Source: Geosiphon pyriformis uo1
Taxonomy: Eukaryota; Fungi; Glomeromycota
Direction: 5' to 3'
Length of the DNA: 64,000 nt
Assembly: GCA_016748015.1 (NCBI GenBank)
Contig: JAAOMT010000523.1
Span: forward strand, 1,284,546 to 1,348,545
The translations under genes were made by a program, and so were the position numbers. Positions 4,257 through 55,123 of the stretch are shown here, piece by piece (position 1 is the first letter of the stretch; the number at the start of each line of letters is the position of its first letter). Under the pieces are notes generated by a model that had not been told where the DNA came from, made no database searches, and was given only the letters and a program-made list of their open reading frames with translations.

Positions 4257-5203
4257 TGTTACTAGAGGTTTTTGGTCTTTTTTTTTAAATGTTGTTAATG
4301 TCTGTTTGTTGTAAATTCACATTTTCTAGAAGTAATTAAACCTCTAATAACTGAATTTATTTTCAAATTATTTCTATAATTTGAATTGCTGGACTTATAA
4401 GTAAAATGGCCAATTCTATGCCAGTTATTTTATGTAGTTACATTGTAGTAAATGTCAACTTTTTTCCAAGAATTGCTTGTTTAAAAACTTACTAAAATGT
4501 GTAGTTACTTTGCTGTAAAAGTCAACTCTTCTACAGGAATCTCATCTGTAGGCTACTCTAATGATTATAATAGGAAAAGAAAAAAAATATAAAAGAAGTA
4601 GAGTTTTGTCAAGTGAAATGTTTTTTATTTAAGCCTAGAATCACTAACAGATTACTGAAATTGGTAGCTAATTAATTTCAAAATGTTAATTGTGTTAAGA
4701 GAATTTCAAGTGTAATAATTTGGTTTTCAAATATTTAATTTTTATTTGAGATGTATAAAAAATGATTTGTTCTAATTAAGATATTTAAAGTAAAATATTA
4801 TGTTAAGATGTGAAAAGATATATTTTCTTAAAGAGAAAAGCTCTTCTTATATACAACTTGTTGTAGTACTAGTTTTTGAACTTGCACTTTTCTCCTTTTT
4901 ATAATTTTGGTGAACTAAAAGTACATTTCAGTAAACTACAAGTTATTTCTCTAAACTATTGATTATTTCGGCAAATTTTCATTACTTTTGGTGAATTTTG
5001 ACTATGTTAAGTAATTCAAAGTATTGTGTAATTTGATCATCTTAATTTCTATAGTACAAATTGGATTATTAATTAAATAATAATATTTGATAATTAATTA
5101 AATAATAAGTGATGATTGAAATAATAATAATATATACTAATTAATAATAGAAATTATAAGAGTAATTTTATGCTAATTAATAGCTAAAATTCTACTGGTA
5201 ACA
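4257..5203 (-). repeat. 3' LTR of element B (family L1)
   Basis: TGTTACTAG...CTGGTAACA, with the PPT GAGGAGGAAATTA adjacent on the minus strand. Confidence 0.92.
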
Positions 5204-5846
5204 TAATTTCCTCCTCAAAACTGAGCTCTGTTAAAGTTCAAACATTATCTGTAATATTGAGATAGTGGTTTAAAATAATTAAAGTAATCTAATCTGAAAA
5301 TTGTTGAAATTTCAGTTCTATGAGCTTTCCAATATACTGAATTTTTATTAAATAAAGTATTGAATTTTATAGGACATTTTTGCAAGTATTAAACAAATCA
5401 TAGAGTTTAAAAGCTGCTCTAAATTTGTAACAAGTATTTGTTAGTCTAACTGTTGTTTTGAACTTATTGTGAATTTGTTTTTGTATAGCTTTAGAAGTAA
5501 GATTTGTTGTTTTAAGTTCCAGTTTTCGTTCATAAAGTGTTTTTTCAATATAAAAATATCTATAAATAAGGGTATGTTTATTGTTTTGTTTATTGATAAA
5601 TAGTAGAAGTTTTTGTTAAATTGTGGCATTTGGTAAAATATCAATAAGAGCAAATAAGAAATTTTTTAAAGCTTGTTTTAAAAGTTCTGGTAATTAATTT
5701 CTAGTATAACTTCTTGTGTTTTTTCTATAAGGGTGATAATTCTGAGAATTGTTTACTATTGGAGCTGTGGTTTCTTTCTGAATGTAATTAATTTGATTTC
5801 CATTAATTGTTATGAATAAGTCAGGAAGTATTTTTAAAGCTAGCAT
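5184..5846 (-). pseudogene. Element B ORF3 (decayed homologue of 8991-9656)
   Basis: Colinear nucleotide similarity to A ORF3 from ATG (5846) to the stop inside the LTR; contains stops. Confidence 0.82.
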
Positions 5847-6971
5847 TAATTTTTGAAATATTTGTTAGATATTTCGGAAAATAATCATGATAAAAGTAAC
5901 TAACTAATAAAAAAAATAAAAAAAATTATTTTTGGGTATGGAGTTTTTACTTGTTTTTGGGTTTGGGTGTTTTTTGTAATTATTTACTATTTTTGTTTTT
6001 TGTTTTTGTGTATTATTAAAAAGATTATTGTAAAAATGTTAAATTAAGTATTCAAGTTTGGTTATTGTTCTATTATAACTATTGGTTCTAAATTTTGTGA
6101 AATATCTTCAGGATTAATTAAAGGAGAATGTATACCAATTTGTGGAATTAATAGTTCAGAATTGTTTCTGAAATGATAGTGTTTTAATCAATCTCCATGT
6201 GCAACTTTTGCTAGTACTTTGTTATCAAGTCTTAACTTGTATGATCTATTGCCTAAAATTTCGTTAATATAAAATGGTTTATTCTATTTATGTTCAAATT
6301 TTTTATTCCATTGTTTTTCAGTCTTAGTTCTGTACAAAATAACTTTATTTTTAACTTTAAATTTGTTAATAACTGGTGGCAATTTGTTGTCATGTCTTTC
6401 TTTTTGTTGAGCTTGAGAGTGTTCAATATGGATGGCTGCTATTTGTTTTTTTTTTTCAAGATACTAAAAAGAGTGTAAACTCTCTTTTAAAGTGTCTCTT
6501 AAAAGTTTTCTTTATTGATTGGTTGTACTGGATATGTTTCTATTGTGAAATTAATTGGTAATGTTGCTGTCTTTCCATAAATCAAATCAAATGATGTGTG
6601 TTTCATAGTATCTTGTTTTAATGTTTTTTATGTTAATAATACTGATAAAATAAAGATATCTTATTCTTGCTCAAAATCAGTTGAAACTTTAACTAAAGAT
6701 TCATACAATTTTCTATTGAAACATTCTATAAGTTTATTTGTTTGAAAATAATAAGCTGATAATAGAAATCTTTTGACATTAAATCATTTACAAATTTTTT
6801 GTATCAAGTTGTTCACAAAATATGTTTCTTAATCAGATAAAAGTTCAATTGGACATTCATGTTTACAAATAATGTTTTCATGGATAAAATTTGCTACTAA
6901 TTTTGCATCTGTTTTTTGGATGGCTCTAGCTTCAGACCATTTGGTAAGATAATCTATTATAACTGTAATAT

Positions 6972-8099: not shown

Positions 8100-9010
8100 T
8101 GTTACCAGAGGTTTTTGGTCTCTTTTCTTAAATATTGGTAATGTTAATTTGCTGTGAATTCACGTTTTCAGGAAGTAGTTGAACCTCCAATAATTGAATT
8201 TATCTTCAAATTATCTCCTATAATTTGAACTGCTGGGCTTATAAGTGGAATGGCCAATTCCTTGCCAGTTACTTTATGTAGTTACATTGTAGTAAACGTC
8301 AACTCTTTCCCAGGAATTGCTCATCTGGAAGCTCACTAAAAATGTGTAGTTACTTTGCTGTAAAAGTCAACTCTTCTACAGAAATCTTGTCTGTAGGCTA
8401 CCCTAATGATTGTAATAAGAAAAAAAAAGGAAAATAAAAGAAATATAAAAGAAATAGAATTTTGTCAAGAGAAACGTTTTCTATCCAGGCCTGGAGTCAC
8501 TAACAGTTTACTGAAATTGGTAGCTAATCAATTTCGAAATGTTAGTTGGATTTTGGGGATTTTCCAAGTACAATAATTAAAGAATTTGGTTTTTTCGAAT
8601 TATTTGATATTTATTTCTTTTTGTGTGTATAGGAACGGTTTTAAGAGATAAATCTAAAGTAAGATACATTTTCCAGAAGAAAAAAGCTCTTCTTTTATAC
8701 AACTTGTTGTAGTACTAGTTTATGAACTTGCACTTTTTTCTCTTTGCCCAAATTCCGGCAAACTAAAGATACATTTTGATGAACTACAAGTTATTTCGCT
8801 GAACNNNNNNNNNNNNNNNNNNNNGGGTATTGTGTAATTTGATCATCCTACTTTCTGTTATACTAATTAGATTATTTTAATTGAATCGTGATATGTGATA
8901 ATTGATTAAATAATAAATAATAATTTGAAATGATATTAATATACTAATGAATTATAGGAATTATAAGGGTAATTTCATGCTAATTAATAGCTAAAATTCT
9001 ACTGGTAACA
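8100..9010 (-). repeat. 3' LTR of element A (assembly gap 8805-8823)
   Basis: TGTTACCAG...CTGGTAACA 9-bp terminal inverted repeat; TATAAAAG on the minus strand near 8692-8699. Confidence 0.95.
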
Positions 9011-9656
9011 TAATCTCCTCCTCAAGACTGAGCTCCGTCGAAATCCAAGCACTATCTGTAATATTGAGATAGTGATCTAAAATGATTGAAGTAATCTGGT
9101 CTGAAAATTGTTGAAATTTCAGTTCTGTGAGTTTGCCAATGTATTGGACTTTCATTGATTGCAGTATTGGATTTTGTAGAACATTTTCACAAGTATTAAA
9201 CAAATCATAGAGTCTAAAAGCTGCTCTAAGTTTGTAGCAAGTGTTTGTTGGTCCAGCTGCTGTTTTGAATTCATTGTAGATTTGTTTTTGTATAACTTCA
9301 GGAGTAAGATTTGTTGCTTCAAGTTCCAGTTTTCGTTCATAAAGTGTTTTTCCAATTTGAAAGTATTTATAGATAGGGGTGTGTTCATTGTTCTGTTTAT
9401 TAAGAAGTAGTAGTAGTTTTTGTTGCATTGTAGCATTTGGTGGAATGTTAATAGGGGCAATTAGCAGATTTTCTTCTAGTGTCTGCTTCAAAAGTCTTGG
9501 TAATCTATTCTCAGAGTGACTTCTTGTTTCTCTTCTATAGAGGTGATAGTTCTGTAAATGATTTGCTACTGGGGCTGTGGTTTTTTTCTGAATGTATTTA
9601 ATTTGACTTCCATTAATCGTTATAGATAAGTCAGGGAGTGTTTTTAAGACTAACAT
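8991..9656 (-). CDS. Element A ORF3: 221-aa protein of unknown function in the env position; stop lies inside the 3' LTR
   Basis: Intact ORF with decayed homologues at the same position in B, C, E and F (motif YFQIGK...AAFRLYDLF...IGKLT). No signal peptide or TM helix seen. Confidence 0.82.
   Translation of the reverse strand: MLVLKTLPDLSITINGSQIKYIQKKTTAPVANHLQNYHLYRRETRSHSENRLPRLLKQTLEENLLIAPINIPPNATMQQKLLLLLNKQNNEHTPIYKYFQIGKTLYERKLELEATNLTPEVIQKQIYNEFKTAAGPTNTCYKLRAAFRLYDLFNTCENVLQNPILQSMKVQYIGKLTELKFQQFSDQITSIILDHYLNITDSAWISTELSLEEEIMLPVEF
9011..9023 (-). promoter_or_regulatory. Polypurine tract of element A (GAGGAGGAGATTA)
   Basis: Purine run immediately 5' of the 3' LTR on the sense strand. 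Confidence 0.85.
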
Positions 9657-9847
9657 TAATTTTTGGGATATTTGTTAAATATTTCGGGGAATAATCATAA
9701 TAAAATTGACTAATTATGAAAAGAGAGAATAAAGAAAATTATTTTTTTTTGGATATGGGGTTTTTTTTATTTGTTTTTGGGTTTGGGTGTTTTGTAATTA
9801 TTTGCTATTTTTGTCTTTGTGTTTTTAGTAGAGAATTATTGTAAAAT

Positions 9848-11233
9848 TTAAGTGTTCAAGTTTGGTTGTTGTTCTATTATAATTATTGGTTTTAAATTTT
9901 GGGGAATATCTTCAGAATTAATTAAAGGAGAATGTGTACCAATTTGTGGAATTAATGGTTCAGGATTGTTTCTGGAATGATAGTGTTTCAGTCTGTCTCC
10001 ATGTGCAACTTTTGCTAATATTTTGTCATCAAGTCTTAACTTATATGATCTATTACCTAGAATTTCGTGAATATAAAATGGTCCATCCCATTTGTTTTCA
10101 AATTTCCCACTCCATTGTTTTTCAGCCTTAGTTCTGTGTAAGAGAACATTATTTCTAACTTTAAATTCGTTGGTAATAGATGGTAATTTGTTGTCATGTC
10201 TTTCTTTTTGTTGAGCTTGGAAATGTTCAATATGAGCTGCTGCTATTCTTCTTTTTCCTTCCAGTGTACTAAGAAGAGTGTAGGCTCTTCTTTGGAGTGT
10301 CTCTTGAAAGTTTTCTTCATTGATTGGTTGCATTGGGTATGTTTCTACTGTGAAATTAATTGGTAATGTTGCTGTCCTTCCATAAGTAAGATCAAATGAT
10401 GTGTGTTTCGTAGTATCTTGTTTTAGTGTTCTGTATGCTAGTAACACTGATGGAATAAAGATATCCCATTCCTGTTCAAAGTCTGTTGAGACTTTGGCTA
10501 AAGATTCACACAATGTTCTGTTGAAATGTTCTACAAGTCCATTTGTTTGAGAGTGATAAGGTAATGATAGAGGTCTTTTAACATTGAACCGTTCACAAAT
10601 TTTTTGTATCAAGTTGTTCACAAAATGTGTTTCTTGATCAGATAAGAGTTCAAATAGGCATCCATGTCTACAGATAATATCTTCATAGATGAATTTTGCT
10701 ACTGATTTTGCATCTGCTCTTTGGATGACTCTAGCTTCAAGCCATTTGGTAAGATAATCCACTGCAACTACAATATAATGATTTTCTTGGGTTGTGATAG
10801 GTAATGGTCTGACTAAATCAATTCCAACTCTGTCAAAAGGTTGTCCAACTTTGATTGGATTTAAAGGTTCTGTGAGGTGAGTTCCTCTTCTTCTTTGGCA
10901 GTTATCACAAGATTCTACATATTGTCGAATGTCTTTTTGCATGTGAGGCCAAAAATAATGTTCAAGGGTTCTTTGAATTGTTTCCTCTTTTTCCAAGTGT
11001 GCTGAAGACGGATCTGTGTACATGTTGTATAATATTGTTTTTTTTTCATTCTCTTGTACTAATCTGAGTGGCTGGTTTGGTTTTCTGTGATTTTTATAAT
11101 AAATTTTATTCTGGTGTATGAAATATTGTTTTAATTGGTGTTGTAAGTGGTGTTTTTTACTTGGAGACCAGTTTTCTGGCATGGTAAGGGTCTCCAAATA
11201 ATTTTTAAGATTGCTGTAGTTTCTGGAGTCCAT
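9848..11233 (-). CDS. int: Element A integrase, stand-alone 461-aa ORF (zinc finger, DDE core, GPF module, no chromodomain)
   Basis: H...YFWPHM...CDNCQ; VGIDLV, LLSDQETHF, NGLVEHFN; KWDGPFYIHE...SYKL. Open frame but with likely damaging substitutions (first zinc-finger His appears as Tyr). Confidence 0.93.
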   Translation of the reverse strand: MDSRNYSNLKNYLETLTMPENWSPSKKHHLQHQLKQYFIHQNKIYYKNHRKPNQPLRLVQENEKKTILYNMYTDPSSAHLEKEETIQRTLEHYFWPHMQKDIRQYVESCDNCQRRRGTHLTEPLNPIKVGQPFDRVGIDLVRPLPITTQENHYIVVAVDYLTKWLEARVIQRADAKSVAKFIYEDIICRHGCLFELLSDQETHFVNNLIQKICERFNVKRPLSLPYHSQTNGLVEHFNRTLCESLAKVSTDFEQEWDIFIPSVLLAYRTLKQDTTKHTSFDLTYGRTATLPINFTVETYPMQPINEENFQETLQRRAYTLLSTLEGKRRIAAAHIEHFQAQQKERHDNKLPSITNEFKVRNNVLLHRTKAEKQWSGKFENKWDGPFYIHEILGNRSYKLRLDDKILAKVAHGDRLKHYHSRNNPEPLIPQIGTHSPLINSEDIPQNLKPIIIIEQQPNLNT

Positions 11234-11290
11234 TCTTGTTTGGTTATTTTGTTGGTAAGTTGGTAAGTTGTGGTGAAATTGTTGTTGGTA

Positions 11291-12664
11291 TTAATCTTGT
11301 CTCATTTTTGAGAGGCTATCGACATTGGTATGTAGTTTTCCTGGTTTGTGGTGTACAATATATTTGTAGTCTGCTAGGAAGTCATTCCATCAAGACTGTT
11401 TGGCACTCTGTTCAGTTTTCTTTTTATTGAGCCATTTGAAGCCAATGTTGTCCGTTATTATGTCAAATTCTTTTCCATTTTTCAGATATTGTTAAAAATG
11501 TTTAAGAGCCCAAATAACTGCAGCAGCTTCCAATTCAGTTGAGCCATATTTGAGTTCTGTTGGCTTGAGTGTTCTGCTGGCATAGGCAATAACTTGTTCT
11601 TGGCCATTTTCATCTAATTGTGATAAGATGACACCAAATACTATATGTGAGACATCAGTGGCTAATTGGAATCATTTGTTGAAGTCTGGGTAAGCAAGAA
11701 CTGGGGCTGTTGTCAATTTTGTTTTGAGAATTTCAAAAGCTTTTTGTTGTTCTTCAGTCCATTTGTATGGTATGTTTTTGTTGGTAAGATAATTGAGTGG
11801 TTTGGCAATTTCTAAGAATCCTTTTATGAATTTTCGATAGTAAGAGGCTAATCCCACAAATCCTCTTAGTTCTGTAGTATTTCTGGGGGTTTGAAAGTTT
11901 TTAACAGCATTGATTGTTCCTGGATTTGGTTTGATTCCATCTTTACTAACTATGTGTCCAAGAAAGATCAAACTTGTTTTTCCAAAGTGACATTTCTCAA
12001 TATTTAACTTTAATTCTGCTTTCTGTAATCGTTGAAAAACTTCTTGCAGATGAATGAGATGGGCTTCAAAGCTTGGTGAGTATACATCAGTATCATCAAG
12101 ATAAACAACTACTAATTGCCACAAAAGCCCTTCATAGACAACATCCATGAGTTGCTGAAATGTTGCTAGTGCATTGCAGAGTCCAAAAGGCATAACATTA
12201 AACTCATAATTTCCTTCTTGAGTGGTGAATGCTGTTTTGGGTCTATCTTTTGGGTCCAATTCGACTTGCCAGTATCCACTTTTCAGGTCTAAAGTTGAAA
12301 AAAACTTGGCTTTTCCCAGAGCATCTAGCATGTTATTAATTCTTGGAAAAGGGTAGGCATTTCCAATTGTAACACTATTCTGTTGTCTATAATCAACACA
12401 GAATCTAATTTTTTCGTTTTTCTTTTTAACTAAAACTACTAGTGAGGTCCAAGAACTTCTTGATGGTTGAATCAATTCGTTATTGAGCATTCTTTGGATC
12501 TCTTCTCTGATAAATTGGTGGCTGGTAGGTGGCACTCGATAAGCTTGTTGATGTTTTGGTAGAGCATCTCCTGTATGGATCTGATGTTGAACAATGTTTG
12601 TTTTTCCCAAGTCATTGTTGTCTTTTGCAAATATATCTGCAAATTCAGCTATCAATTGTTTCAA
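11291..12664 (-). pseudogene. pol: Element A reverse transcriptase plus RNase H domain
   Basis: IRFCVDYR, FSTLDLKSGYWQ, TAFTT, VMPFGL, VVYLDDT, FLGH, GFVGLASYYRKFI. RNase H continues in frame past 11672 with stops. Confidence 0.95.
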
Positions 12665-13135
12665 TTGTCTTTGTTGTTAAGGTTCTAAGGAATCCATATT
12701 AATTCGAGAGAGTTTTTCTTCCAACAAGTGGTAGTTTTCAGTAGTGGGAATGATATTTGTATTTGGGAGTAGAGTGTGCTTTATAATTTCGATGAATTTA
12801 GAGACAATTTGAGAGTTTTCATCTTGAAAGATATTGCTGTGTATGATTCCAATTTCTAATTTGTTTAATAAAACAATAGGGTAATTATTGGGGTTGTAGA
12901 ATGTAACTCAAAATTTTTTTATTCCTTTGGGAATATAAACATTTGGAATTGATATTTCATGCTTCAAACAGATTTGTTTATTGGATTCAAAGATTTGTTG
13001 TGTAGTGGTGGGTTTTGAGCAAGTGTAAATTTCGTGATGTTTTCCAAAAAGTGAAATGGTAATTGGCTGAGGAAGTTGAAGAATCTGGTGAGATTCATTT
13101 TGTGTATTAAGAACTATGTTTACTGGAACTGTAAA

Positions 13136-13510
13136 TCATCCAGTTGAACCAAAACCTTGAGTTCCTCTTTCACTTTTTCCCAATTGTTCTCTGTTGTTTA
13201 CTGATTGTAAACCCGAAATGTTGATTAAGGGTAAGTAAATTGCTTGAGCAATTTTTTCAGCATGTTCAATTTTGAATGGTTTGTCTGTCTCATTCTGTAA
13301 CATGATGGTAATGTCTCCAGTGTATTCTGTATCTATAACTCCTCCTCTAATATTGATTCTTTTGCTTGCCAATGATGATCTGGAGGCAATTTGAACCATT
13401 GCTTCTGGTGGAATTTTAAGAGCAATTTTTAAATTGATTTTTGTCAAAGACTTTGGTTGGAGAATCAAAGTATCTTTTTCTGGGTATCTCAAGTCATATC
13501 CAGCATCAAT
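13136..13510 (-). pseudogene. dut: Element A dUTPase domain within pol
   Basis: All five trimeric dUTPase motifs: DAGYDL, ASRSSLA, GGVIDTEYTG, KIAQ, RGTQGFGSTG. Confidence 0.95.
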
Positions 13511-13689
13511 TTTGTGTGCTTTTTCTGGTCTGATTCCTTGGCCATGGTTGTCAAAATATTTAAGATGTAGAGGTGGTTGCTTTTCAAGAAGATAGATGGG
13601 AGTGGTTGGTAGTTCTTCTACTTATTCAGATACTCCAAATTCGATTTCATTTTTATCATTCTCATCTGGCAGAGGAATGCTAAGAGCAT

Positions 13690-14290
13690 AACATTCTAAA
13701 CACCATTGGTCATCACAAAGCCTAACACATTCTTCACACAATTAAATGTTCATTTGCTCTAATCGTTGAATTTGAGCTTTTTTGGTCGGATATGTGTGGC
13801 TTGCAATTTGGTGGTAGGTTTCTACTTCATCTTCATAATCAAATCCAGCTAATTCCATAGTGTACTCAATATATTCGGCTTCTTTCATTTGGTGGACATC
13901 TTCTTGAGTGGCTCTATTGATTAATGCCATTGCTAGGTCAAAAATCATTTCAGCATCATAAGAGTAGTGGTAAAGTTTATTGAGAGCACTGTTGTATGCT
14001 GCATCAAATGGTGTCTCTCTTCTGACTTTTTCCGAGATTGATAGAGCATATTGACAGGTTTGATCACATACTCCTCCTCTCATTGCTACATCAATCCAAT
14101 TGCATTCTTCTGGTAGTATTTCTCCACATGTAAGACAAGGTGTGTTGTCCCATTTTCCACTTCTTTTTGGAGATCCAAATCGTTTTCTATGGCATGCTTT
14201 GCAAAAGTAACAGGTACAAGTTTCATATTCCTCTTCTAGAGAAATACATGCTTCCATTGATGAAAGTTTTTTGTTGCAATCTTTGCATTT
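13690..14290 (-). other. Cys-rich domain of pol between protease and dUTPase (putative Zn-binding)
   Basis: CKDC..CKAC..CLTC..CDQTC...CEECVRLCDDQWCLEC, with the same spacing visible in B, C, E and F. Confidence 0.75.
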
Positions 14291-16940
14291 GAGTGGAATA
14301 TAGAGTGGTTGTTTCTGTGGTTCTGGTGTAGAATATCTAACTTTTTTTCATCCCCTTGATTCTTTGAAAATCTCTTGTTCGGTTTCTTCAGCCCAATTGG
14401 ATGTTGATCCAAGAGCCATGTAGGTTTTAGTAAGTGGCATTTCTTTCTCCTCTTCAAATTCAAATACTGGAGCTTTTTCTGATCATTTATTAAAGGTATT
14501 ACAGGTTGCAGGTACTATAGTATATTGTCCTTGGTATGAGATTTTAAGTTCTTAAGTTTCCCAGTTCAGGTTTGCATTGGCCTTGAGAAGCCAATCATTT
14601 CCAACTAGAGCTTGGTATTGGGGTGCATCCATAATAAGAACTTTAACTGAAATGGTGATTCCATCAATTGAAAAAGGGAAATCATCAATTTCTCCTACTG
14701 GAGTCTTCTTCATATCATCAGCTGTGACAATAAATGTTTAAGCTGGTCTGTTTACGTTTTGTTTAAGTTGTTGCATCAGCTGGTAAGTGATAATACTTCT
14801 AGCTGATCCACTATCTAAGATTAAGCAAATGGGTTTTTCTTCTACTGTAGCTTCTGTGTACATGGCAGTAATTGCTTTCTGTTCATTGACTGCTGCATTA
14901 CTAAGCAGAAATGGTGATTCATTTGCCTCAAATTCAAATGGAAATATATCTGACAGATTAGCATTTTGGGCAATTTGAGCTGGGAGAATGGTGTGGTTGG
15001 AAGAGTTTGATCTTGGTGCTGCAATTTCACCTTCAGAAAGTGCAGTTTGTTGAAAATCCGATTCTTCTGGTATTGTAAGATAACTGGGTTGAGTGTGATA
15101 GTAATTGGGTCTTTGCTGGCCCGAATTTCTGGGAACCAACTGGTTATTTGGATTGATTCTGTTGTGGTTATTCTGCAATTGATTCTGGGGTGTGAATTGG
15201 TTATATTGAACCAATTTTCTTGCTAGTACTTGATATTGTTGAGTGAGTGGTGTCTGATATGGCTGAATTGGTAAAGGTTGCTGATATTGTTGCTGCATTG
15301 ATTGTGGAGCTGGTAGATAGTAACTGTTTTGATTTTGTGGTCTTGGTGAATAATAAGTTGGTGGTGGAGATTGGTAATAGGATTGTTGTGGTGAAGAGTA
15401 ATGTTGATTACTCCTGTTTTGTTGGTCTCTTTGTAATTTTCTACAATCTTGTTTCCAGTGTCCTGGAATTCCACAATAATGACAATTTTGAGATTGGTTG
15501 TTGGATGATGATCTAAAATTGTTTTGGTTGTGTTGTTGTGGGGGTTGATATCTTTCTGGTTGTTGTTGCTATTGTTGTTGGTTTGTGAAGTAGCTTTCAA
15601 CTTTTTTTGTGAGTTGGTTTATCTTTTCTTCAGCTGCTGAGCTGGTTTTTCCAATTGCAAGGTTTACAAGCTTGGTGTGATTTACTTCTTTCATTGCCAT
15701 TTCATAACTCTTTGCATGTTTAATAGCAGTTGCTAAGTCTGCTGGAGCATGTGGATGGACTTTTTTAATCAGTTTGTCTTTTAACCCTGTTATAAACTGA
15801 TCCAGAATTTGAGCATCAGAATAGTAGTCATTGGTTTCCAATTGTCGGATTCATCTAAGAAGTTTGTTAAATCTTCTGAGATAGGTTATAACAGATTCAG
15901 ATATTTCTTGTTTGATATTGCAAAAGCGGTTTCTGAGAGTGATAGAGGTATTGTTGTTGGTGAATTGTTATAGAAAAACATTTTTAAATGCTTGCCAGTT
16001 TTCAAATGGTTCTTCTAAATTTTCAAACCATTCTTCTGCTATTCCTTGGAGAAAGTAGGGAATTGCTTTGAGCATTCTTGCTGCAATCCAACCATTTGCA
16101 TCTCCTGCTTTTTGAACTTTGTCCAGCCATTCTTGGGGACTGGTATCATTGTTTTCACCAGTGAATTCTGGGATTTTTGCAATGTAAGCAGTTGCCATTT
16201 CTTCTTCATTTTCTGGAATTTCTTCTGGTTCTGATTCAGTTTCTTTACTTTCTAAGCTTTCTGAGTGATTACTTTCGTTTTCCTGTAAGTAATCAATGAT
16301 GTTGGCACTTGTTGATATTGGTTCTTACTGTTGAGTAGGATTTCTAGGTGACTGAAAATCTTCTGGTCTGGAGAAATGGCTAAGTAGTGAACTTGGTGTT
16401 TGTGGTTAAACAAGTGAAATTGGAAATGGTGTAATAGAAAGTGGTAATTTGACACTGGTTTCTTGTTTAGGTGTTTGCAAGTGTTTGGCAGTTGTCTTTT
16501 GTAGTGTTAGAGTGTTTGGAGTGGTTCTTGAGTATTGCTTCAATCTTTGTTTGCCTTTATTGCTTGTTTTTGTCTCTAATTCAAACTCAAAAGAGTATTT
16601 ACACTGTACTGGGTATTTTTCTTCACAATACTTAATAATATTAAAATTAAGTTCTTGGAAGTAGATAGCAAGTGTTTCACTGTTCAGGTCTTCTGTTCCC
16701 AAATGTGAATAATGCACTAAATTATTGTAGAGGTTGCTTCTAACTTCTGAAATGTTGTAGTTTCCAAAAAGATAATTGTTGATGCAGTTTTTAATGTATT
16801 GGTATACTGATTTCTTTACAATTTCAATTCCGTCTGAAATGTTGAATCTTTGCTTGCAGTGGGTGTAAATTAACTGGTAATACTCTAGAGTTGCTGTGTT
16901 TGGTATGGTCGCCACTTTGAATTTGTTGTTGCTGTGTTAT

Positions 16941-16958
16941 TTCCATGGGAGAGCACCA
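16941..16958 (-). promoter_or_regulatory. Primer-binding site of element A (TGGTGCTCTCCCATGGAA)
   Basis: Starts TGG 2 nt after the 5' LTR end. Confidence 0.85.
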
Positions 16959-16960
16959 AA

Positions 16961-17964
16961 TGTTACCAGAGGTTTTTGGTCTCTTTTCTTAAATATTGGT
17001 AATGTTAATTTGCTGTGAATTCACGTTTTCAGGAAGTAGTTGAACCTCCAATAACTGAATTTATCTTCAAATTATCTCCTATAATTTGAACTGGTGGGCT
17101 TATAAGTGGAATGGCCAATTCCTTGCCAGTTACTTTATGTAGTTACGTTGTAGTAAATGTCAACTCTTTCCTAGGAATTGCTCGTCTGGAAGCTCACTAA
17201 AAATGGGTAGTTACTTTGCTGTAAAAGTCAACTCTTCTACAGAAATCTTGTCTGTAGGCTACCCTAATGATTGTAATAAGAAAAGAAAAGGAAAATAAAA
17301 GAAATGTAAAAGAAATAAAATTTTGTCAAAAGAAACGTTTTCTATCCAGGCCTGGAGTCACTAACAGTTTACTGAAATTGGTAGCTAATCAATTTCGAAA
17401 TGTTAGTTGGATTTTGGGGATTTTCCAAGTACAATAATTAAAGAATTTGGTTTTTTCGAATTATTTGATATTTATTTCTTTTTGTGTGTATAGGAACGGT
17501 TTTAAGAGATAAATCTAAAGTAAGATACATTTTCCAGAAGAAAAAAGCTCTTCTTTTATACAACTTGTTGTAGTACTAGTTTATGAACTTGCACTTTTTT
17601 CTCTTTGCCCAAATTCCGGCAAACTAAAGATACATTTTGATGAACTACAAGTTATTTCGCTGAACTATTGATTAATNNNNNNNNNNNNNNNNNNNNNNNN
17701 NNNNNNNNNNNNNNNNNNNNNNNNNNNTTCGGCGAATTTCTGTAAATTTCGGCAAATTTTTGAATGTTACAAAGTTCAGGGTATTGTGTAATTTGATCAT
17801 CCTACTTTCTGTTATACTAATTAGATTATTTTAATTGAATCGTGATATGTGATAATTGATTAAATAATAAATAATAATTTGAAATGATATTAATATACTA
17901 ATGAATTATAGGAATTATAAGGGTAATTTCATGCTAATTAATAGCTAAAATTTTACTGGTAACA
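16961..17964 (-). repeat. 5' LTR of element A (assembly gap 17677-17727)
   Basis: Near-identical to 8100-9010. Confidence 0.95.
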
Positions 17965-18095
17965 TTGGAAACCAATTTTCTGGCATAGTAAGAGTCTCCA
18001 AATAGTTTTTGATATTGTTGTAATTTCTGAGATCTATTGTTGTTTGGTTATTTTTGTTGATAGGTTGGTAAGTTGTGGTAGTGTTGTTGTTGGTA

Positions 18096-21000
18096 TTAAT
18101 CTTGTCTCATTTTTGAAAGGCTATCAATATTAGTGTGTAGTTTTCCTAGTTTGTGATGTACAATATACTTGTAGTCTGCTAAGAAATTATTCCATTAAGA
18201 CTGTTTGGCATTTTGTTCTGTTTTCTTTTTATTGAACCATTTAAAGCCAATATTGTTAGTTATAATATCAAATTTTTTTCCATTTTCAGGTATTGTTAAA
18301 AGTGTTTAAGAGCCCAAATGACTGTGGCAGCTTCTAATTTAGTTGAGCTATATTTGAGTTCTGTTGGTTTAAGTGTTTTATTGATATAGGCAATAACTTG
18401 TTTCTGGTGTTACCAGTAGAATTTTAGCTATTAATTAGTACGAAATTACCCTTATAATTCCTATTATTAATTAGCATACATTATTATTATTTCGATTATC
18501 ACTTATTATTTAATCAAATTATTAAATATCATTACTCAATCAATAATCCGATTTGTACTCTAGAAATTAAGATGATCAAATTACACAATACCCTGAACCA
18601 TTTAACATAGTCAAAATTCGCCGAAATTAATGAAAAATCGCCGAATAATCAATAGTTTAGTGAAATAACTTGTAAATTTGCCAAAATGTATCTTTAGTTC
18701 ACCCAAATTGTAGAAAAGAGAAAAGTGCAAGTTCAAAGACTAGTACTACAACAAGTTGTATAAAAAAAGAGCTTTTCTCTTCAAGAAAATGTATCTTCTC
18801 ATAGTATCTTACTATAGCATCCTACTTTAGATATCTTAATTAAAACAAATCACCTTTTACACATTTAAATAAAAATTAAATATTCGAAAACCAAATCCTT
18901 AAATTATTACACTTGAAATTCTCTCAACACAACTAACGTTTTGAAATTGATTAGCTACCAATTTCAATAATCTGTTAGTGACTCCAAGCCTGGATAGAAA
19001 ACGTTTCCCTTAATAAAATTCTATTTCTTTTACATTTTTTTTGTTTTATTTTCTTTTCTTATCATAATCATTAGAGTAGCCTACAGACAAGATTTCTGTA
19101 GAAGAGTTAACTTTTACAACAAAGTAACTACACATTTTTAGTGAGCTTCCAGATGAGCAATTCCTGGGAAAGAGTTGACATTTACTACAACATAACTACA
19201 CAAAGTAACTGGCATAGAATTGGCTATTTCACTTATAAGCCCAACAGTTCAAATTATAGGAGATAATTTGAAGATAAATTCAGTTACTAGAGGTCCAACT
19301 ACTTTCTAGAAACATGAATTCACAGCAAATCAACATTAACAACATTTAAGAAAAGAGACCAAAAACCTCTGGTAACACTGGCCATTTTCATTCAATTGTG
19401 ATAAAATAGCACCAAATACTATATGTAAAACATCAGTAACTAGTTGGAACTATTTGTTGAAATTTGGGTAAGCAAGACCTGGGGCTGTTGTCAATTTTGT
19501 TTTGAGAGTTTCAAAAGCTTTCTGTTGTTCTTTAGTCCATTGATATGGCACATTTTTGTTGGTAAGATAATTGAATGGTTTGGCAATTTTTGAGAATTCT
19601 TTGATGAATTTTTGATAGTAAGAAGCTAATTCTACAAATCCTCATAGCTCTGTAATATTTTTGGAAGTTTGAAAGTTTTTGACAGCACTGATTGTTCTAG
19701 AGTTTGGTTTGACTCCATCTTTGCTAATAATGTATTCAAGAAAAATTAAGCTTGTTTTTCTAAAGTAATATTTTTCAATGTTCAATTTTAATCTTGCTTT
19801 TCATAATCATTGAAAAACTTTTCACAAGTGGATAAGATGAGCTTTGAAGCTTGGTGAATATACATTAGTGTTATCTAGATAGACAACTAATAATTGTCAT
19901 AAAAGTCTTTTATATACAACATCCATAAGTTGCTGAAATGTTGCTGGTATATTGCAAAATCCAAAAGACATAATATTAAATTCATAGTTTTCTTCTTGGG
20001 TGGTAAATGCTGTTTTGGGTTAATCTTTTAGGTCTATTTTGACTTGCTAATATTCACTTTTTAAGTTTAAAGTTGGCTTTTTCTAAAGCATTTAGCATGT
20101 CATTAATTCTTGGAAGAGAATAGATATTTCCAATTGTTATGCTGTTAAGCTGATAATAATTTACACAGAATCTAATTTTTCTATTTTTTTTCTTGACAAA
20201 AACCACTGGTAAGGCCCAAAAACTTCTTGATGGTTGAATTAATCAATTATTGAGCATTCTCTGGACTTCTTCCCTAATGAATTGGTGGCTGACAAGTGGT
20301 ACTCTATAAGCTTGTTGACATTTTAGTGGAACATCTCTTGTGTAAATCTGGTGTTAAACAATATTAGTTTTTCCAAGATCATTATTGTCTTTTGCAAATA
20401 TATTAGCAAATTCAGCTATCAACTGTTTCAATTGTTTTTGTTGTTAAAATTCCAAGGGACCCATGTTAATTTGAAATAGTTTTTCTTCTAAAAAATGGTA
20501 GTTTTTAATAGTAGCAATGATATTTGGGTTTGGAAATAGTATATGTCTTACAATTTTGATAAAATTGCTAACAATTTGAGGGTTTTTATTTTGAAAGATA
20601 TTGCTATGTATGATTCCAGTTTCTAATTTATTTAATAAAACAATAGGGTAGTTATTGGAATTGTAAAAAATAACTCGAAATTTTTTATTTCTTTTGGTAT
20701 GTAAACATTTGGAATTATGATTTTATGTTTTGAACAGATTTGTTTATTGGATTCAAAGACTTGTTGAGTAGTAGTAGATTTCGAGCAAGTGTAAATTTTG
20801 TGATGTTTTTCAAAAGATAAAATGGTAATTGGATGAAGAAGTTGAAGAATTTGGTAAGATTTATTTTGTACATTGAAAGCTATATTTACTGGAACTGTAA
20901 ATCATCCAGTTGAACCAAAATCTTGAGTTCCTCTTTTACTTTTTCCTAATTGTTCTCTGTTGTTAACTGATTGTAAATCTGAAATGTTGATTAAGAGTAG

Positions 21001-28921: not shown

Positions 28922-30498
28922 TTAGAATTGAGTTTCTGCAAAATTGTCTATATCTATTAATATGGCTTTGTTTGTGTAATGTTTAATTGTTATGTTGAGT
29001 ATTGTTTTTTGTAGGTCTTTTAACTGTTGGTTGGTTATTCATCCTATGTTGTTAACTGTTATAGTTTTTATAAATCTATATAACAGTACATTTGGATAAT
29101 ATTGGAAAACAATATACAGTCAATATGCTGTTTTGTAATATAAGATCAGGTTGCTTCTTCCTACAAATTTTTCTACTTGTTGTATTGTTTTTTTGTTAAA
29201 AGTTTTCTGTTCAAGATCTCTGTATGGTGTCTTCAAATTTAGCTGTTTACTAATTTTGTTGAACCAATATATTAGAGGAAGTTTTTCTTTCCATTTTTGG
29301 ATGTTATTATGAGATGGTTTTCTTGGTATATTTAATTGTTGATCTCCCATTTTAATTGCAATCAGTCTCTTGTGAGTTCCTCTATTTTATGTGTTGGATA
29401 TTAATGATAATATATTAAAGGTTTTCTCTTGATGTTGTAATATAAGTCTTCTCTTTAATTCTAGTTGTCTTTGTATGTTGTGTACTCTTTCTCAAAGGTT
29501 AATCTGAAGTTTACCCATTGTCTGGGGTCTTCTCTGAAGCTATTCTTACAATTGTCTGATGTGTTTTTCTAATCTAGAAACACGGAATATTAATGGCCTT
29601 TTCACGATTTCTCTAAGTATATAATAAAGCTTTTTTCAATTTAATTAGTAACCACATAAATAATCTTGATCAGAGATTATTCTTCCAAAGAGTTTAAAGA
29701 TGGAATGATAGTTTTATTTGCTAGAGAGAGTATGTGAATTCTATTGTTAATCTCATAATTGTGATGTTCATTCAATTTATTATTTTTATTAATTCTTTTT
29801 GAATAAGATTTTATTTAGATATTTGTTGCTTTTAGTTGAAGCTTGTTTTTTTTTATTATTAAAACTATTGTATATATATAATTATTGTTTTACAAAATAA
29901 CGTTTTATAATACTCTATTTCTGTTATTTCTAAATAGTGCTTGCTGCTATTGTGAAATAGTATTTGCTGCTTTTGCACAATAATGCTTGCTCCTATTGTA
30001 AAATAGTGCTTGTTGCTATTACATAGTAGTGTTTGCTGTTATTTGTAAATTATTTCTTTTTATAAATTGTTGCTGTGCTATTTCATAATTGACTGATTTA
30101 TATTATTTATAATTCCTATTAAATTTTTGAATTGTAACAGTGTTGTCTGGTGTCTATTCCCTTGTTTTAGAGAGTTTAGTCTTGCAAGCTAAAGAAGCTT
30201 TAATTTTTTTTTATTTGAAGACTAAGTATTCTTTTTTTTGACTTTTTTTAGTTCCTCTTTTTTTTTTTTTCTATGTCTCATCTGAAAGAGATTTTTTTTT
30301 TCTAATTTCTTTCTTTTAGACATTATGTAGGAATAAGAATAGTTGGTTCTAGTTGAATTCTTGTCTATTTCTTTCTTTCTTTTGTCTTTATATCTTATCT
30401 TTTTTTTATTGATAATAATCTTTAGTTGAGATGTTAATTGCTAAATTGCTTTAAATAGTTGTTTTAAAAGTTGTAGAATTTGATTTGAAAAATCCATG
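28922..30498 (-). pseudogene. Element E ORF3, interrupted by solo LTR 29305-30139
   Basis: MDFSNQILQLLKQLFKAI... and ...KTFNKKTIQQVEKFVGRSNLILYYKTAY*LYIVF...NFAETQF*, homologous to F and C ORF3. Confidence 0.78.
29305..30139 (-). mobile_element. Solo LTR, family L5 (835 bp), with about 6 x 23-bp U3 repeats (AAATAGTGCTTGCTGCTATTGTG) at about 29930-30075
   Basis: TATTATGAG...TTGTAACA termini, TSD ATGT/GTGT, absent from the colinear ORF3 of F, TATA run near 29870. Confidence 0.8.
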
Positions 30499-30580: not shown

Positions 30581-31947
30581 TTATGTTTTGATAACAATGA
30601 TTGGTTTCAGATTTTATAGTATATTTTTTGGTCTGATTAATAGAATTTGTGTTTTTAGTTAAAGTACTAATGACAATATCTGTTGTTTTGTATAATAAAT
30701 TTTTAACCAATTTCCATAAGCTACTTTCTTTAAAATTCTGTCTTCTAATTATAATTTGTAAGTTTTATTGCTTAAAGCTTCATGTATGTAGAATGGACTA
30801 TTCCATTTCAAGTCAAACTTTCTACTTCACTGTTTTTTAGCTTTTGTACAATGTAATAGGACTTGGTTTCCAATCTTGAATTCTATTGGTTGTTTAGATA
30901 GATGGTTATTATGTCTTTCTTTCTGTTGTTCTTGAGTGTTACTAATATTGTCAGCTGCTATTTTACAATTGTCTTCTAATGTTTTCATTAGCTGGTATGT
31001 TTTTTGGTATAAGATAGCTTTAAAATTTTCTTTGGTAATTGTATTTGTTGAGTAGGATAGTATTTTTTATTCAATAGGTAACATAGCTTTTCTTTCATAG
31101 ACTAATTCAAATAGTGTAAACTGAATTGTATTTTGCTTCAATATTTGGTATGCCAATAATACAAAGAATATAAATAGATCTCATTCTTGTGTATTTTTAT
31201 AACTTATTTTTGTTAGTGCTTTACACAATGTTTTGTTGAATTATTCTACCAGTTTATTTGTTTGTGGATGATAGAATAACAATAAAGATTGTTTTATTCC
31301 AAATCATTGGCTTAATTTAGTCAATGTATTATTAACAAAATGTATTCCTTGGTCAGATAGTAATTTTTTTGGGCATTCATGTCTGCAAATTAGGTTTTGA
31401 TGTATGAATTTGGTTACTGTTTTGGTATCAGCTACTTGAATTGCTCTGACTTCTGGCCATTTTATAAGATAGTCTATGGCTATAGTAATGTACCAATTTT
31501 TTTTAAATGTAATTGAGAGAAGACTAACCAAATTAATTTTAATGTATTAAATGGATTTCCAACTGGAATGGATTGAAGTGGTTTCATTGATTTTGTTTTT
31601 CTTTTTCTTTGACAAAAGTTACAATTAAGCACATATTCAAAAATATTCTTATATATTGTTAGCCAATAGTACCTGTTTATGATTTTTTCCAAAGTAGCAT
31701 TCTTATTAAAGTGTTTTGTAGTTGAGTCAGAATGCATGCTATGTAAAATCATTTCTTTTTCATTGTCTTTTATAACTTATTATGAGGTAAAACAGTTTCA
31801 ACATTTTTGACAATATAGCTGGTTATTTTGGATAAAGTAATTTTTGGCTTGTTTTTGTACAATACTTTGTTTCTGTTAAGATAATATCTTCTTGAACTGA
31901 AGTGTCAATAAGTACTGATGTAATCACTAATAAGTAGTGATATCTAT
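30581..31947 (-). pseudogene. int: Element E integrase ORF
   Basis: LHSMHSD..HF..YYW..CNFCQ; IAIDYLIKWPEVRAI; LLSDQGIHF. Confidence 0.88.
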
Positions 31948-31957
31948 GGATTTGAGA

Positions 31958-34900
31958 CTAGACTTGTATTATCTTCAACAAACTGTCAGCATTGGTATTC
32001 TTAGATTTTTTCTTGTAATGGGCTTTGTATAAAAATTGTTGCAGATAAGTGTTCTATTGTGCATATTTTCTTCTTGGTTGTGGCTTGTTAAGTAGCCAAA
32101 TAAGTTTTTTATGATCAATATATATGTCAAATAGTTGGCTAAAATAGTGTTTTCAAGTGTATATGGTCTAGTAAATGGTAAGACATTCTAAATTCATTGT
32201 ATTATATATTCTTTTAGCTGAATTTGTACTATAACTAATATACATAATTGAATGTTCTCTGTTGTTTGGTTCTATTTGGGACAAAACTGTTCTTAATGCA
32301 TTCTTCAAGGCATCTATTGTGATTATAAACTTTTTGTTGAAGTTGAAGTAGATCAAAATTGGTGCTGTGATTAATTGTTGCTTAAGATAATCAAAGATTT
32401 CTTGTTGTTCTTTTTTCTAAAAGTATAGTACATGTTTTAACAGTAAGTGGTGAAAGGGTTTGGCAATATCTAAAAATCTTTTTATGAACTAATGATAGTA
32501 TTTAGCCAGTTCTAAAAATCCTCTCAGTTCTTGTAGATTAGTTAGAACTGAAAAATCTTTGATTTTTTGTACTTTGTTTAGATCAAATTTGACTTTATCT
32601 TTGCCAATCAAATATTCTAGAAATTTCAGTTCTTTTTTTCCAAAGAAGCATTTATCAGAGTTGAGCTTTAGCTCTGCACCTTGAAGGTGTTTAAAGATCT
32701 GTTGGAGGTAGAGTAAATGGTTGTCAAAGGTTTCAAAAAACACATTGGTATTATCTAGGTATACTACAACTGATTTTTATAGGATTTCTTTGTATACAAC
32801 ATCTATTAGCTGCTGAAAGATAGCAAAGGTGTTAAAAAGCCTGAAAAGCATCATGTTGAACTCAAAGTTTCTATTTTATATAGTAAATGCCATTTTTTTT
32901 TGTTCTTTGAGTCCATTTTAACTTGTCAATATCTACTGATAAGATCTAATAACAAATACCATTTTTTATTTCTCAGATTGTCCAGAATTTTTTGAATGAG
33001 TGAAATAAGATAACTATTTCCTTAAGTAATATTATTTAGTTTCCAATAGTCCATGCAGAATCTTATCTTTTCATTTTTTTTTGTAACTAATACAACTAGA
33101 GAGAATCAAGAGCTTAAAAATTTTTTGATCAGTCCATTGTTAAGCATTCATTGTATTTCTTGTTTAATTAGATTATCACTGGATGAAAGTACTTGATAAA
33201 TCCATTGTTTAATAAATCAAACATCTTCTATGTCAATCTGGTGTTTCATAATATCGGTGTGTTCAAATTCATTTTTACTGGCAAAGACATTAACATATTA
33301 GTTTAATAGAACTTTGAGTTGTATCTACTGTAGCATGCTCAAGTTTCCCAAGTTTAGTTTGTTGATTTCTTCTGGTGTAAACAGATAACTTTCCTTTGGC
33401 AGATTTCATACTTGTGAGATAATGTCACAGAATAAGAATAATTGTGCAAAGTCTGAAATGGGTTGAAGTTTCTTTGGATTCTGAATGTCTGGGAATATGG
33501 AATCAATGAAGGTTTTTTCTGAGATTTTGATGGTGTCTTCTATGTAATTATAAATAAAAATCTTTAAATGGTTATGAGCTTTAAATAGTATATACAGATT
33601 GGCTACGTCAACTAGGAAACAGATCTTAGAATTGGCTCCAAATAATATGACTTGATCTTGAATTTTTTAATCTACTTTGAGAATATATTGTCTGTATAGA
33701 AGAATGAAAATGACTGTATCAGTGGAAATAAATTCTACCTGATCACTGTCTTCTTCTATAAAATTAACTGGTATGTTCTCTTTTTCACTTAATTCAAATC
33801 TGTTAATTTTTTTAGTAATGAGACCTAATTCTTTGCATATAATAACTGGAATCAATTGGAGTACTTTCACAAAAGGCAAAAAGATTGCTTGGACAATCTT
33901 CTCTTGTGACTCAATTTTGTAGGTTTGTTTGAATTGTTTTGTGGCATCACAATAATGTTTCCAATATAACCAGCATCAATAATTCCTTTTTTTACATTGA
34001 TTTTTTTCTTTGCAAGACTAGATCTGAATGCTATTTGTACTATCATACTAACAGGAATTTTTAACACTATTTTAAGATCTATTATTACAAGAAAGTGTAA
34101 GACTATAATTACAGATGATTGTTCAGAGTATCTTAAATTAAAACCAGTATTGGTGTTATATGCTCTTTTAAAGCATACTTTTTTGTTATTGTCACTATAC
34201 TATTTCAATTCTAATTCTTTGAAAAGGTCAAGATAAATAAGATACTGTTTTATTTCAGTAATCTAACTTGACTCTTAAAACAATATGTTTTTAATAGGTA
34301 ACTCATATTCTTCTTTAAGTTCTGTTAATTTTGCTATAGAATATAATGTCTTTGGAGGTGAATTAAATAGAAGATTATACTTATCACAGTACTAAAAATG
34401 GCATAAAACCAAACAATAATTGTACAGCTTTGTGTTAAGATTAGCTAACCTTTGTTCCTATTCTTCCCAGGTAGAAACCAATTCCTAATATCAATCCTAA
34501 AATGCATCTGGATTATCTGTGAAAAGATCATCCATAACATAGTTGAGTTTATTATATTTAAGCATGAAAGGATTGTTCTTGATTTCTCATATTTCACAGA
34601 GTGTAGTGCTTTTGGCTTTTGCACTTACTATTCTCCAAATTTTATGCTTATTGTGTAAATAATCTTCTAATTGTATTAGTGTTTCTCTCTAAACATTCTC
34701 AATTAAAGTTCTTTTTTGTACCTAATTATTGATTAAAATTATGTATTGAAATGCTTTGTTATATGTTTTTTCTTTGCCAGATACATTATTTTAAAATTCT
34801 TTATTTGCCAGAATTTTTTCATATATAAGGCATGATATATGGTCTCATTTATCCTGTCATTTTGGTCATCCAAATTTTTTTAACACACAAAGTTTGCAAT

Positions 34901-43122: not shown

Positions 43123-43860
43123 TTAGAATTGAGCTTCTGTGAAATTATATGTATTTGTTATCTTGGCTTTATTTATATAGTGTTTGATGGTCACATTGAG
43201 TATTGTTCTTTGTAGATTTTTGAACTGTCGATTGATTATTTGTCCTATGTTGTTAACTGTTATAGTCTTTATAGATTCATACAACAGTATATTTGGACAA
43301 TGTTGGAAAGCAGCATATAGTCAGTATGCTGCTTTGTAATATAAGATCAAATTGCTTTTTTCTATGAATTTTTCTACTTGTTGTATTGTTTTTTTGTTAA
43401 AATTTTTCTGGTTAAGATCTCTATATGGTGTCTTTAAATCTAGTTGTTCACCAATTTTGTAGAACTAATATGTTGGAAGAAGTTTTTTTTTCTATTCCTG
43501 GATATTGTCAGGTGTTCATTCTCCTGTTTCAAGAAATTTGATCCTACAAGCTAAAGCTTCTTTAATTTCTTTGAGCTCAAAGACCAAGTATCTTCTTTTA
43601 TAAACTTTTTCTCATTCCTCTACTTTTTTTTTAAGCTCTACTCGAAACAATTTAATTCTTTTTTGTAAAATTTTTTTCTTAGGCAAAGTGTAGGGATAAG
43701 AATAATTAGTTTTAGTTAAACTTGTGTCCATTTCTTTTTTGCTCCTATCTTTATAGTGTTTTTTTTTTCTATTAATTGTTATTTTTATTTGAGCAGAAAA
43801 TTGTTGAATTGTATTAAATAGTTGTTTTGAGAGTTGTACAATTTGATCTAACAGGTCCAT
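43123..43860 (-). pseudogene. Element F ORF3
   Basis: MDLLDQIVQLSKQLFNTIQQ... continuing to ...YYKAAY*LY...NFTEAQF*. Confidence 0.8.
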
Positions 43861-55091: not shown

Positions 55092-55123
55092 GAACATTTT
55101 CAACCCAAAAATACAACAAAAAA

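Follow-up and report, generated by a model that had tools for sequence, protein, structure and literature searches.

We analysed a stretch of 64,000 nucleotides (nt) from the genome of the fungus Geosiphon pyriformis uo1 (assembly GCA_016748015.1, contig JAAOMT010000523.1, positions 1,284,546 to 1,348,545 of the forward strand; hereafter, the window). The window is a nest of decayed long terminal repeat (LTR) retrotransposons, an element type that makes up 41% of the G. pyriformis genome according to the available text of PMC11952901. It holds five copies, A, B, C, E and F, all of them decayed, in which integrase is an open reading frame (ORF) of its own behind the stop codon that closes the reverse transcriptase (RT)–RNase H frame. 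The complete element, copy A, sits within codon ~24 of the copy B integrase and comprises the following features:

8100..17964 (−): copy A, full-length Ty3/gypsy LTR element with TG...CA ends and the 4-bp target duplication TTGG
16961..17964 (−): 5′ LTR
16943..16958 (−): tRNA primer-binding site, starting TGG
11294..16936 (−): single frame of gag (CCHC), protease region, dUTPase, RT and RNase H, with 17 internal decay stops and no frameshift
11291..11293 (−): Pol terminal stop TAA, four codons past the RNase H end motif
11234..11290 (−): 57-nt spacer with one G, nine CAA and no ATG
9848..11233 (−): integrase ORF of 461 amino acids (aa) with its own ATG
8100..9010 (−): 3′ LTR

Copy A carries the features of a Ty3/gypsy element: two LTRs with TG...CA ends, the primer-binding site, a polypurine tract and a short target duplication. 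Its ends and the 4-bp duplication show that it was inserted in the manner of an integrase. The two LTRs are 98–99% alike over the compared parts; because N gaps lie at the same place in both, this likeness, found despite 17 stops in the coding frame, may be an assembly artefact. The integrase has an H2C2 zinc finger (first His mutated), D139-D199-E235 and an SH3-like C terminus, and its best match among solved structures is Ty3 (7q5b, E 4e-51). No chromodomain family, as would mark a chromovirus, was found on the copy A integrase or in the precomputed domains of the best 120 of 709 homologues. In the window and in the intact relatives L016, L031 and L060, the domain order is a Ty3-type capsid and CCHC gag, protease, RT, RNase H and then integrase, with the protease left unscored in decayed copy A. 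Integrase is, however, not the C-terminal part of a Pol polyprotein, as it is in the canonical layout. The other four copies have the following junctions between RNase H and integrase:

18035..18098 (−): copy B, TAA at 18096–98, 58-nt spacer, start decayed to ATA
31945..31960 (−): copy E, TAG at 31958–60, 10-nt spacer, start decayed to ATA
45307..45322 (−): copy F, TAA at 45320–22, 10-nt spacer, ATG; neither the stop nor the spacer length varies in the family
55089..55126 (+): copy C, TAA at 55089–91, 32-nt spacer, ATG

In all five copies, the stop lies 4–5 codons past the terminal RNase H motif, and integrase begins after 57 (A), 58 (B), 10 (E), 10 (F) or 32 (C) nt with ATG (A, F and C) or its decayed form ATA (B and E), followed by (D/N)xxxY. 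Identity over the last 300 nt of RNase H is 87% between A and B, 77% between E and F and 54–61% between families, dividing the copies into three families. A preliminary description of this DNA had given the same stops, spacers, starts and families. It had also called the longer spacers G-poor and CAA-rich, which holds for A, B and C (0–1 G each; nine, nine and four CAA) but is a trait of the window families, not of the whole lineage. With its in-frame spacer and 17 internal decay stops, copy A alone proves nothing, and copy C has a decay stop within the terminal RNase H motif itself. Since the window copies are decayed and the copy A spacer is in frame, design and decay are not separable from the window alone. 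The case for a split Pol rests on its fixation throughout the genome and on intact relatives.

Fixation was assessed by mapping contigs of the DNA run X1 to two junctions, with 1,634 records for family A and 248 for family E/F; X1 may be the window's own source and gives no independent support for occurrence elsewhere. Two further runs, X2 and X3, yielded no aligned records. Family A differs at 47 places at ≥5% of depth, and C>T and G>A changes account for 33 of these. No CAA allele of its terminal stop was seen among these places (none of eight A>G places lies at 11293; one low-support T>G place is of unlocated position). The internal stop at 11392 is a sense codon in 58% of depth, and the integrase ATG is intact in 64% and ATA in 36%. 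Family E/F has 35 places at ≥8%, none of them at the stop, with the ATG decayed in 8% and no indel among the differences at the junction; TAA, 10 nt and ATG, out of frame, are therefore fixed. The terminal stops are thus fixed where a nearby internal stop is not, which is not decay. A 149-nt skip bounded by TG..AG on the sense strand, present in one X1 DNA contig, was taken as a deletion and not as a splice joint.

A protein search with the copy A integrase returned 709 matches, of which the best 120 are 42–51% identical and nearly all 400–440 aa long. Named homologues among these come from Rhizophagus irregularis and R. clarus, in addition to a chimeric G. pyriformis model (78% identical); these sources point to a Glomeromycota-type host as likely. 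With the chimeric model left out, 97 of 119 start at a common Met column, 14 at the next Met and 8 elsewhere. Such a search is by nature blind to fused forms, so longer proteins were searched too (45 matches); the top three are NCBI gene models whose junctions are truncated, and the best clearly fused protein is 34% identical. Searching from the RT side, at lengths that admit both forms, we found that 28 of the 29 best-scoring matches end 1–21 aa past RNase H (111 of the 120 matches listed were examined). An RT–RNase H search of a representative library was dominated by multi-copy gene models; in the 27 single-stretch or near matches inspected, integrase was present in the same protein in 11 and absent from 16. 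A search of viral contigs gave two weak matches, which were not used.

From metagenome DNA we kept 80 loci of 517 relatives, found with search patterns that were built from stand-alone integrases and so favour this lineage. RNase H and integrase share a frame in none of the 41 loci with RNase H within 900 nt; in five further loci, RNase H lies farther upstream, beyond a long tail. The integrase start is held by 71 of the 80 loci, and an in-frame stop precedes it by 1–47 codons in 70 of them, the remaining one running to the contig edge. Among 42 non-redundant RNase H loci, 17 combine an unbroken Pol of at least 400 aa with an unbroken integrase of at least 380 aa, and intact split loci include Gag-Pol frames of 1,370–1,621 aa. 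Such unbroken frames on both sides of the junction place the split in intact elements. An origin of the stop by mutational decay from an ordinary, fused Pol is thus extremely improbable: the ruin of all five window copies, the internal stops of copy A and the preponderance of C>T and G>A changes would suit that explanation, but the fixed terminal stops and the intact relatives refute it. The split integrase is conserved, belongs to intact elements and is not decay.

Removal of near-copies left 63 of the 71 start-holding loci, with an identifiable Pol end in 51. At 13 of these 51 junctions, Pol and integrase overlap by 1–14 nt, as TAATG (two), ATGA (two), ATG-n2/n5/n8-stop (eight) or with an offset of −10 (one). 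The other 38 have spacers of 2–727 nt in all three frames (15:11:12), such that a single readthrough would fuse only three of them. Stop and start overlap or lie no more than ~14 nt apart in 14 of the 51 loci, as well as in window copies E and F (10 nt), and are farther apart in the other 37.

Six NCBI gene models from Rhizophagus and Cetraspora (P0123–P0125, P0374, P0375 and P0382), three of which have one common junction, join RNase H to integrase through predicted introns that delete conserved ends, as if a spliced RNA removed the stop and restored a fused Pol–integrase. However, the RNase H end motif is missing in five of the six, the sixth retains it but enters integrase at position 41 by way of an unrelated linker, and the junctions differ between families. 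The R. clarus model P0374 is sister to the split locus L018, and its closest relatives are split. There is no GT between motif and stop in 18 of 35 short-tail loci and in four of the five window copies. By a donor consensus made for this analysis, the final 120 nt of RNase H contain fewer strong donors for their length (2 in 4,191 nt) than the sequence upstream (41 in 18,044), and a donor with an in-frame acceptor occurs in 1 of 35 loci. Before the integrase ATG, there is no excess of acceptor or branch motifs. We therefore regard a spliced, fused Pol as very unlikely and the gene models as likely annotation artefacts.

Readthrough of the stop, or a frameshift, could yield a minor fused product in copy A and in the three spaced loci where a single stop is all that divides two frames in register. 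Elsewhere, the lineage seems to rely on readthrough: of ten single stops within the pol frame, seven have the sequence TGA CTA or TAG CAA TTA, which we take to be readthrough motifs. At the Pol–integrase junction, by contrast, these contexts stand at none of the 38 spaced stops, the spacers occupy all frames, family E/F is fixed out of frame, and a conserved Met with initiation context would be unnecessary. A fused product of this kind is accordingly highly improbable, and neither splicing nor readthrough can restore a fused Pol in general. The stops inside pol lie mostly between protease and RT (L012:870–872, L025:902–904, L029:3290–3292, L062:3358–3360, L080:1585–1587, L056:374–376 and 929–931) and are likely to be programmed readthrough at an unusual place. 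A stop before RT in copies A and B (12677–79) was considered in the same light; copies E, F and C have sense codons there.

The preliminary description had read the layout as ancestral architecture and not decay, with an integrase in need of its own translation. The present results bear it out: the 41 metagenome loci with nearby RNase H are split throughout, with no continuous frame, and no general intron restores Pol. Intact relatives, stop fixation and start-codon context all agree with an ancestral split and a separately translated integrase, although they do not establish a single origin, and the route of translation is one that we infer.

The integrase start codon itself looks selected from its sequence context. 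A purine stands at −3 in 55 of 63 loci, compared with 214 of 341 internal Met codons (P 7e-5), and the second residue is D, E or N in 62 of 63. ATG is present at normal frequency in the 60 nt upstream of the Pol stop (31 seen versus 26.8 expected). After the stop, by contrast, it is the most depleted trinucleotide (9 seen versus 39.1 expected, or 30.0 by dinucleotide shuffles; P 7e-6), whereas a control after ORF3, a third frame behind integrase, gave 53 seen versus 57. ATGs are found within 60 nt before the integrase ATG in 8 of the 14 overlap or near loci, up to five per locus and with one ATG only 7 nt upstream of the start; these would intercept a ribosome scanning from the cap but not one released at the stop.

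For this fungal Ty3/gypsy lineage, in which integrase is a gene of its own behind gag-pol and is followed by ORF3, we moderately favour production of integrase by termination–reinitiation on the full-length RNA. This preference reflects overlaps of known type, upstream ATGs that are tolerated up to the stop and avoided after it, and repetition of the pattern at ORF3. Having completed Pol, ribosomes would begin again at the integrase ATG of that genomic RNA, directly where stop and start overlap and after a short scan where a spacer intervenes. Such coupling would keep integrase at or below the level of Pol. The free integrase would then join the particle at its site of synthesis by binding RNA, Gag or RT, not as a part of Pol; alternatively, it may meet the cDNA after uncoating. 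Of these steps, we infer the packaging route purely by reasoning.

Several observations weigh against termination–reinitiation or against the strength of the case for it. The loci are related by descent, which makes the P values optimistic, and small overlaps are expected from compactness alone once frames are uncoupled. The calicivirus-type TGGGA motif, which pairs with 18S rRNA, was found within 120 nt in only 3 of 63 loci. In long spacers, ATG is depleted most strongly in the half next to the integrase start (3 versus 14.5), with no significant deficit in the half next to the Pol stop (6 versus 9.2), a placement that an entry point or transcript start within the spacer would fit equally well. 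Outside a subclade with an RNA motif, described below, depletion is weak (6 versus 11.8, P 0.05; CAT equally low), and three long spacers (365–727 nt) carry 7–12 ATGs with no depletion. In the window, family E/F lacks the purine at −3, and the copy A spacer, having no second stop, leaves family A open to a single readthrough. Four fused proteins, P0126, P0292, P0348 and P0293, also fall in or beside the split group.

A shorter capped RNA of its own, started from an internal promoter in RNase H or the spacer, could also supply integrase, with a second such RNA for ORF3. Parallels are Ty1i RNA, the 19S RNA of cauliflower mosaic virus and the internal promoter of foamy viruses. The strong start context, leaders that are G-poor and A/C- or T-rich, and ATG depletion concentrated close to the integrase ATG would all suit such an RNA, and it would account more easily for loci whose long spacers hold cargo ORFs and upstream ATGs (L012, L042, L062, L035 and L050). 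At overlap loci, however, the leader would be RNase H coding sequence, and the nearby upstream ATGs described above would stand in the way; no promoter motif was found, though none was sought. We rate an internal transcript as possible but unlikely.

Internal ribosome entry guided by the spacer RNA is a further alternative, by way of an unstructured CAA-rich leader in the window families and a conserved structure in one subclade. In that subclade, comprising 17 of the 80 loci plus one partial case, a 40-nt two-helix RNA structure always lies 3–30 nt 5′ of the integrase ATG (for example, L031:4445–4510). Of its 13 pairs, 8 have changed on both sides, a degree of covariation reached by 0 of 500 shuffles; 15 of the 17 loci went into the building of the model. 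The structure has an invariant internal loop and a possible 2-bp pseudoknot, perhaps akin to a T-loop or the head of T-box stem I, and has no Rfam match. Nevertheless, it occurs neither in the window nor in the remaining loci, the overlap loci lack a spacer altogether, and the structure could equally hold a post-termination ribosome or bind a protein. Internal entry as the general route is thus improbable, although it or an internal transcript may apply to the long-spacer families. Five loci of the RNA-structure subclade (L016, L021, L030, L031 and L039) also have an acidic Cys/His-rich tail of 236–344 aa after RNase H at the end of Pol, with no Pfam match.

ORF3 follows integrase in the window as listed here:

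8991..9656 (−): ORF3 of copy A, 221 aa, no Pfam family
5190..5864 (−): ORF3 of copy B, decayed, 71% identical to that of copy A
28964..29179 (−): ORF3 remnant of copy E (profile match, iE 4e-4)
43168..43473 (−): ORF3 remnant of copy F (profile match, iE 2.5e-5)

In copy A, ORF3 crosses the polypurine tract, which codes for its acidic end, and stops within the 3′ LTR. Frames of 140–300 aa in this place were aligned by position and BLAST links in the window and 19 loci (including L001:2456–3145, L013:1596–2039 and L030:5455–5871); the window protein is linked directly to L001 (34%, E 3e-16) and weakly to the rest. No Pfam family is common to two or more of the 20 members. The predicted structure has a confident helical core (mean predicted local distance difference test score, 78.5) for which Foldseek returned nothing from the viral and PDB libraries at E 0.001 (best VIA Z 4.8), and the L013 member gave no usable Atlas match; these failures do not show a new fold. 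Integrase and ORF3 overlap at some junctions and are parted by a spacer at others, and the shorter spacers hold few upstream ATGs (4 seen versus 10.6 expected). By its position, ORF3 is a candidate reinitiation helper or TAV-like transactivator.

RT and integrase both group with gypsy elements, in trees that held no copia, BEL or curated clade references and that do not fix a named clade; integrase clusters with fused elements, one of them from a plant, with a support of 99 by SH-aLRT (Shimodaira–Hasegawa-like approximate likelihood-ratio test). A FastTree analysis of RT–RNase H placed all 53 split rows and four fused ones in one clade (98), requiring two changes between layouts. With IQ-TREE on 47 of the 106 rows, the group is a polytomy and three changes are needed, as they are in the integrase tree, in which two fused proteins nest beside split L063. 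Placement on an RT tree, a check proposed in the preliminary description, supports the gypsy affiliation but not one origin. The split is old and widespread, re-fusion has probably occurred, and a single origin is not proven by these sequences. Apart from a fused integrase, the elements have the Ty3/gypsy features that we looked for, and they form a large gypsy-type family in mycorrhizal-type fungi.

Other components of these elements were also noted. A dUTPase lies between the protease region and RT in copy A (13139–13621, −) and likewise in B, C, E, F and L060, that is, in all window families and some relatives. Between the protease region and the dUTPase, copy A has a Cys-rich region of ~200 aa (13745–14347, −) that is conserved in five other copies and has no Pfam match. 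Cargo ORFs (L035:509–1234, L050:2–784, L042:888–1396 and L061:1571–2221), in some loci directly 5′ of integrase, include one resembling a restriction endonuclease, which overlaps the integrase ATG (ATGA); one with a weak P-loop, which stops 3 nt short of that ATG; two small ones; and a NUDIX domain placed between gag and pol. Within the window, a solo LTR is nested in the copy B RNase H (18405–19378, +), and insertion of copy F splits the copy C RT (41722–42078 and 54142–54717, +).

In LTR retrotransposons and retroviruses, integrase enters the particle as part of Pol. A large and diverse lineage that still transposes with an uncoupled integrase means that this rule is not absolute. Two questions can now be put to the test: by what means a eukaryotic ribosome resumes translation behind a very long ORF, and how an integrase that no polyprotein carries locates the cDNA. 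The lineage also yields a new conserved protein family (ORF3) and a new RNA structure, and explains spliced Pol models in annotations of mycorrhizal fungi as likely artefacts. Tools that require a continuous Pol would misclassify these intact elements as broken.

We did not find the layout described in the literature within reach; subscription papers and Repbase reports lay mostly outside it, as did supplements, so curated repeat libraries of these fungi may hold such elements. The available text of PMC5972666, PMC2836005, PMC2774666, PMC11952901, PMC2582038, PMC13524379, PMC12786077, bioRxiv 10.1101/2021.03.30.436303 and bioRxiv 10.64898/2026.05.21.726589 does not contain it. Five states of integrase position are distinguished in the accessible part of PMC2774666, and a complete, same-sense, separate ORF after RNase H is not among them. 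REM1 of Chlamydomonas, treated there, also has its integrating enzyme outside the RT ORF, but that integrase is truncated and antisense, whereas here a complete DDE integrase lies in sense.

The elements resemble Ty3/gypsy (Metaviridae) in their TG...CA LTRs, primer site, polypurine tract, gag-PR-RT-RH-IN order (protease, PR; RNase H, RH; integrase, IN) and 4-bp target duplication, and differ from it in an integrase outside Pol and a third conserved ORF after it. In DIRS elements, the tyrosine integrase is likewise separate from RT, yet it is a tyrosine recombinase and not a DDE integrase; it typically occupies an ORF apart from DAM, as stated in the available text of bioRxiv 10.64898/2026.05.21.726589. 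The nearest group has an integrase with an N-terminal YPYY-type motif (Athila/Tat-related, Gypsy-1_RO and DGLT-A1, as far as PMC2836005 is accessible), and a Y-x-P-x-Y/F-x-Y/F pattern can be seen by eye in the present integrases. Ginger1, in the same partial source, also has a free-standing gypsy-like integrase of ~400 aa with its own start, YPYY motif, zinc finger and DDE. It differs in having terminal inverted repeats, C-terminal protease domains and no gag or RT, a comparison made by description with trees that held no Ginger sequences; integrase in copy A and the long loci has gag, RT and LTRs around it.

Coupled termination–reinitiation operates in caliciviruses, influenza B BM2, fungal victoriviruses and hypoviruses, SART1 and LINE-1 ORF2, according to the accessible sections of PMC5972666. 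UAAUG, AUGA and AUG-n2/n5/n8-stop, found in 12 of the 13 overlap loci, match the spectrum given there, and the 63-nt spacer of LINE-1 resembles the 57–58 nt of the window. The present elements differ in the scarcity of the TGGGA-type motif, in far more variable spacing (−14 to +727) and in being LTR elements with integrase as the second product, so the comparison concerns only how such systems work. The same sections describe how caulimovirus TAV permits restart over a few to 700 nt, indifferent to spacing and cis signals, which by position makes ORF3 a candidate helper. Caulimoviruses are likewise reverse-transcribing, with several tightly spaced long ORFs, an element-specific last ORF and the spacing range seen here; they mostly lack integrase, and ORF3 has no detected likeness to TAV. 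At the far end of this comparison, we consider it speculative and rather unlikely that fungi harbour a polycistronic LTR lineage working like a caulimovirus. In such a lineage, ORF3 would be a new reinitiation transactivator or integrase-loading factor, one subclade would have evolved a new ribosome- or protein-binding RNA before integrase, and integrase would meet the cDNA as a free, transposase-like protein, making these elements a living link from LTR elements to DNA transposons of the Ginger type.

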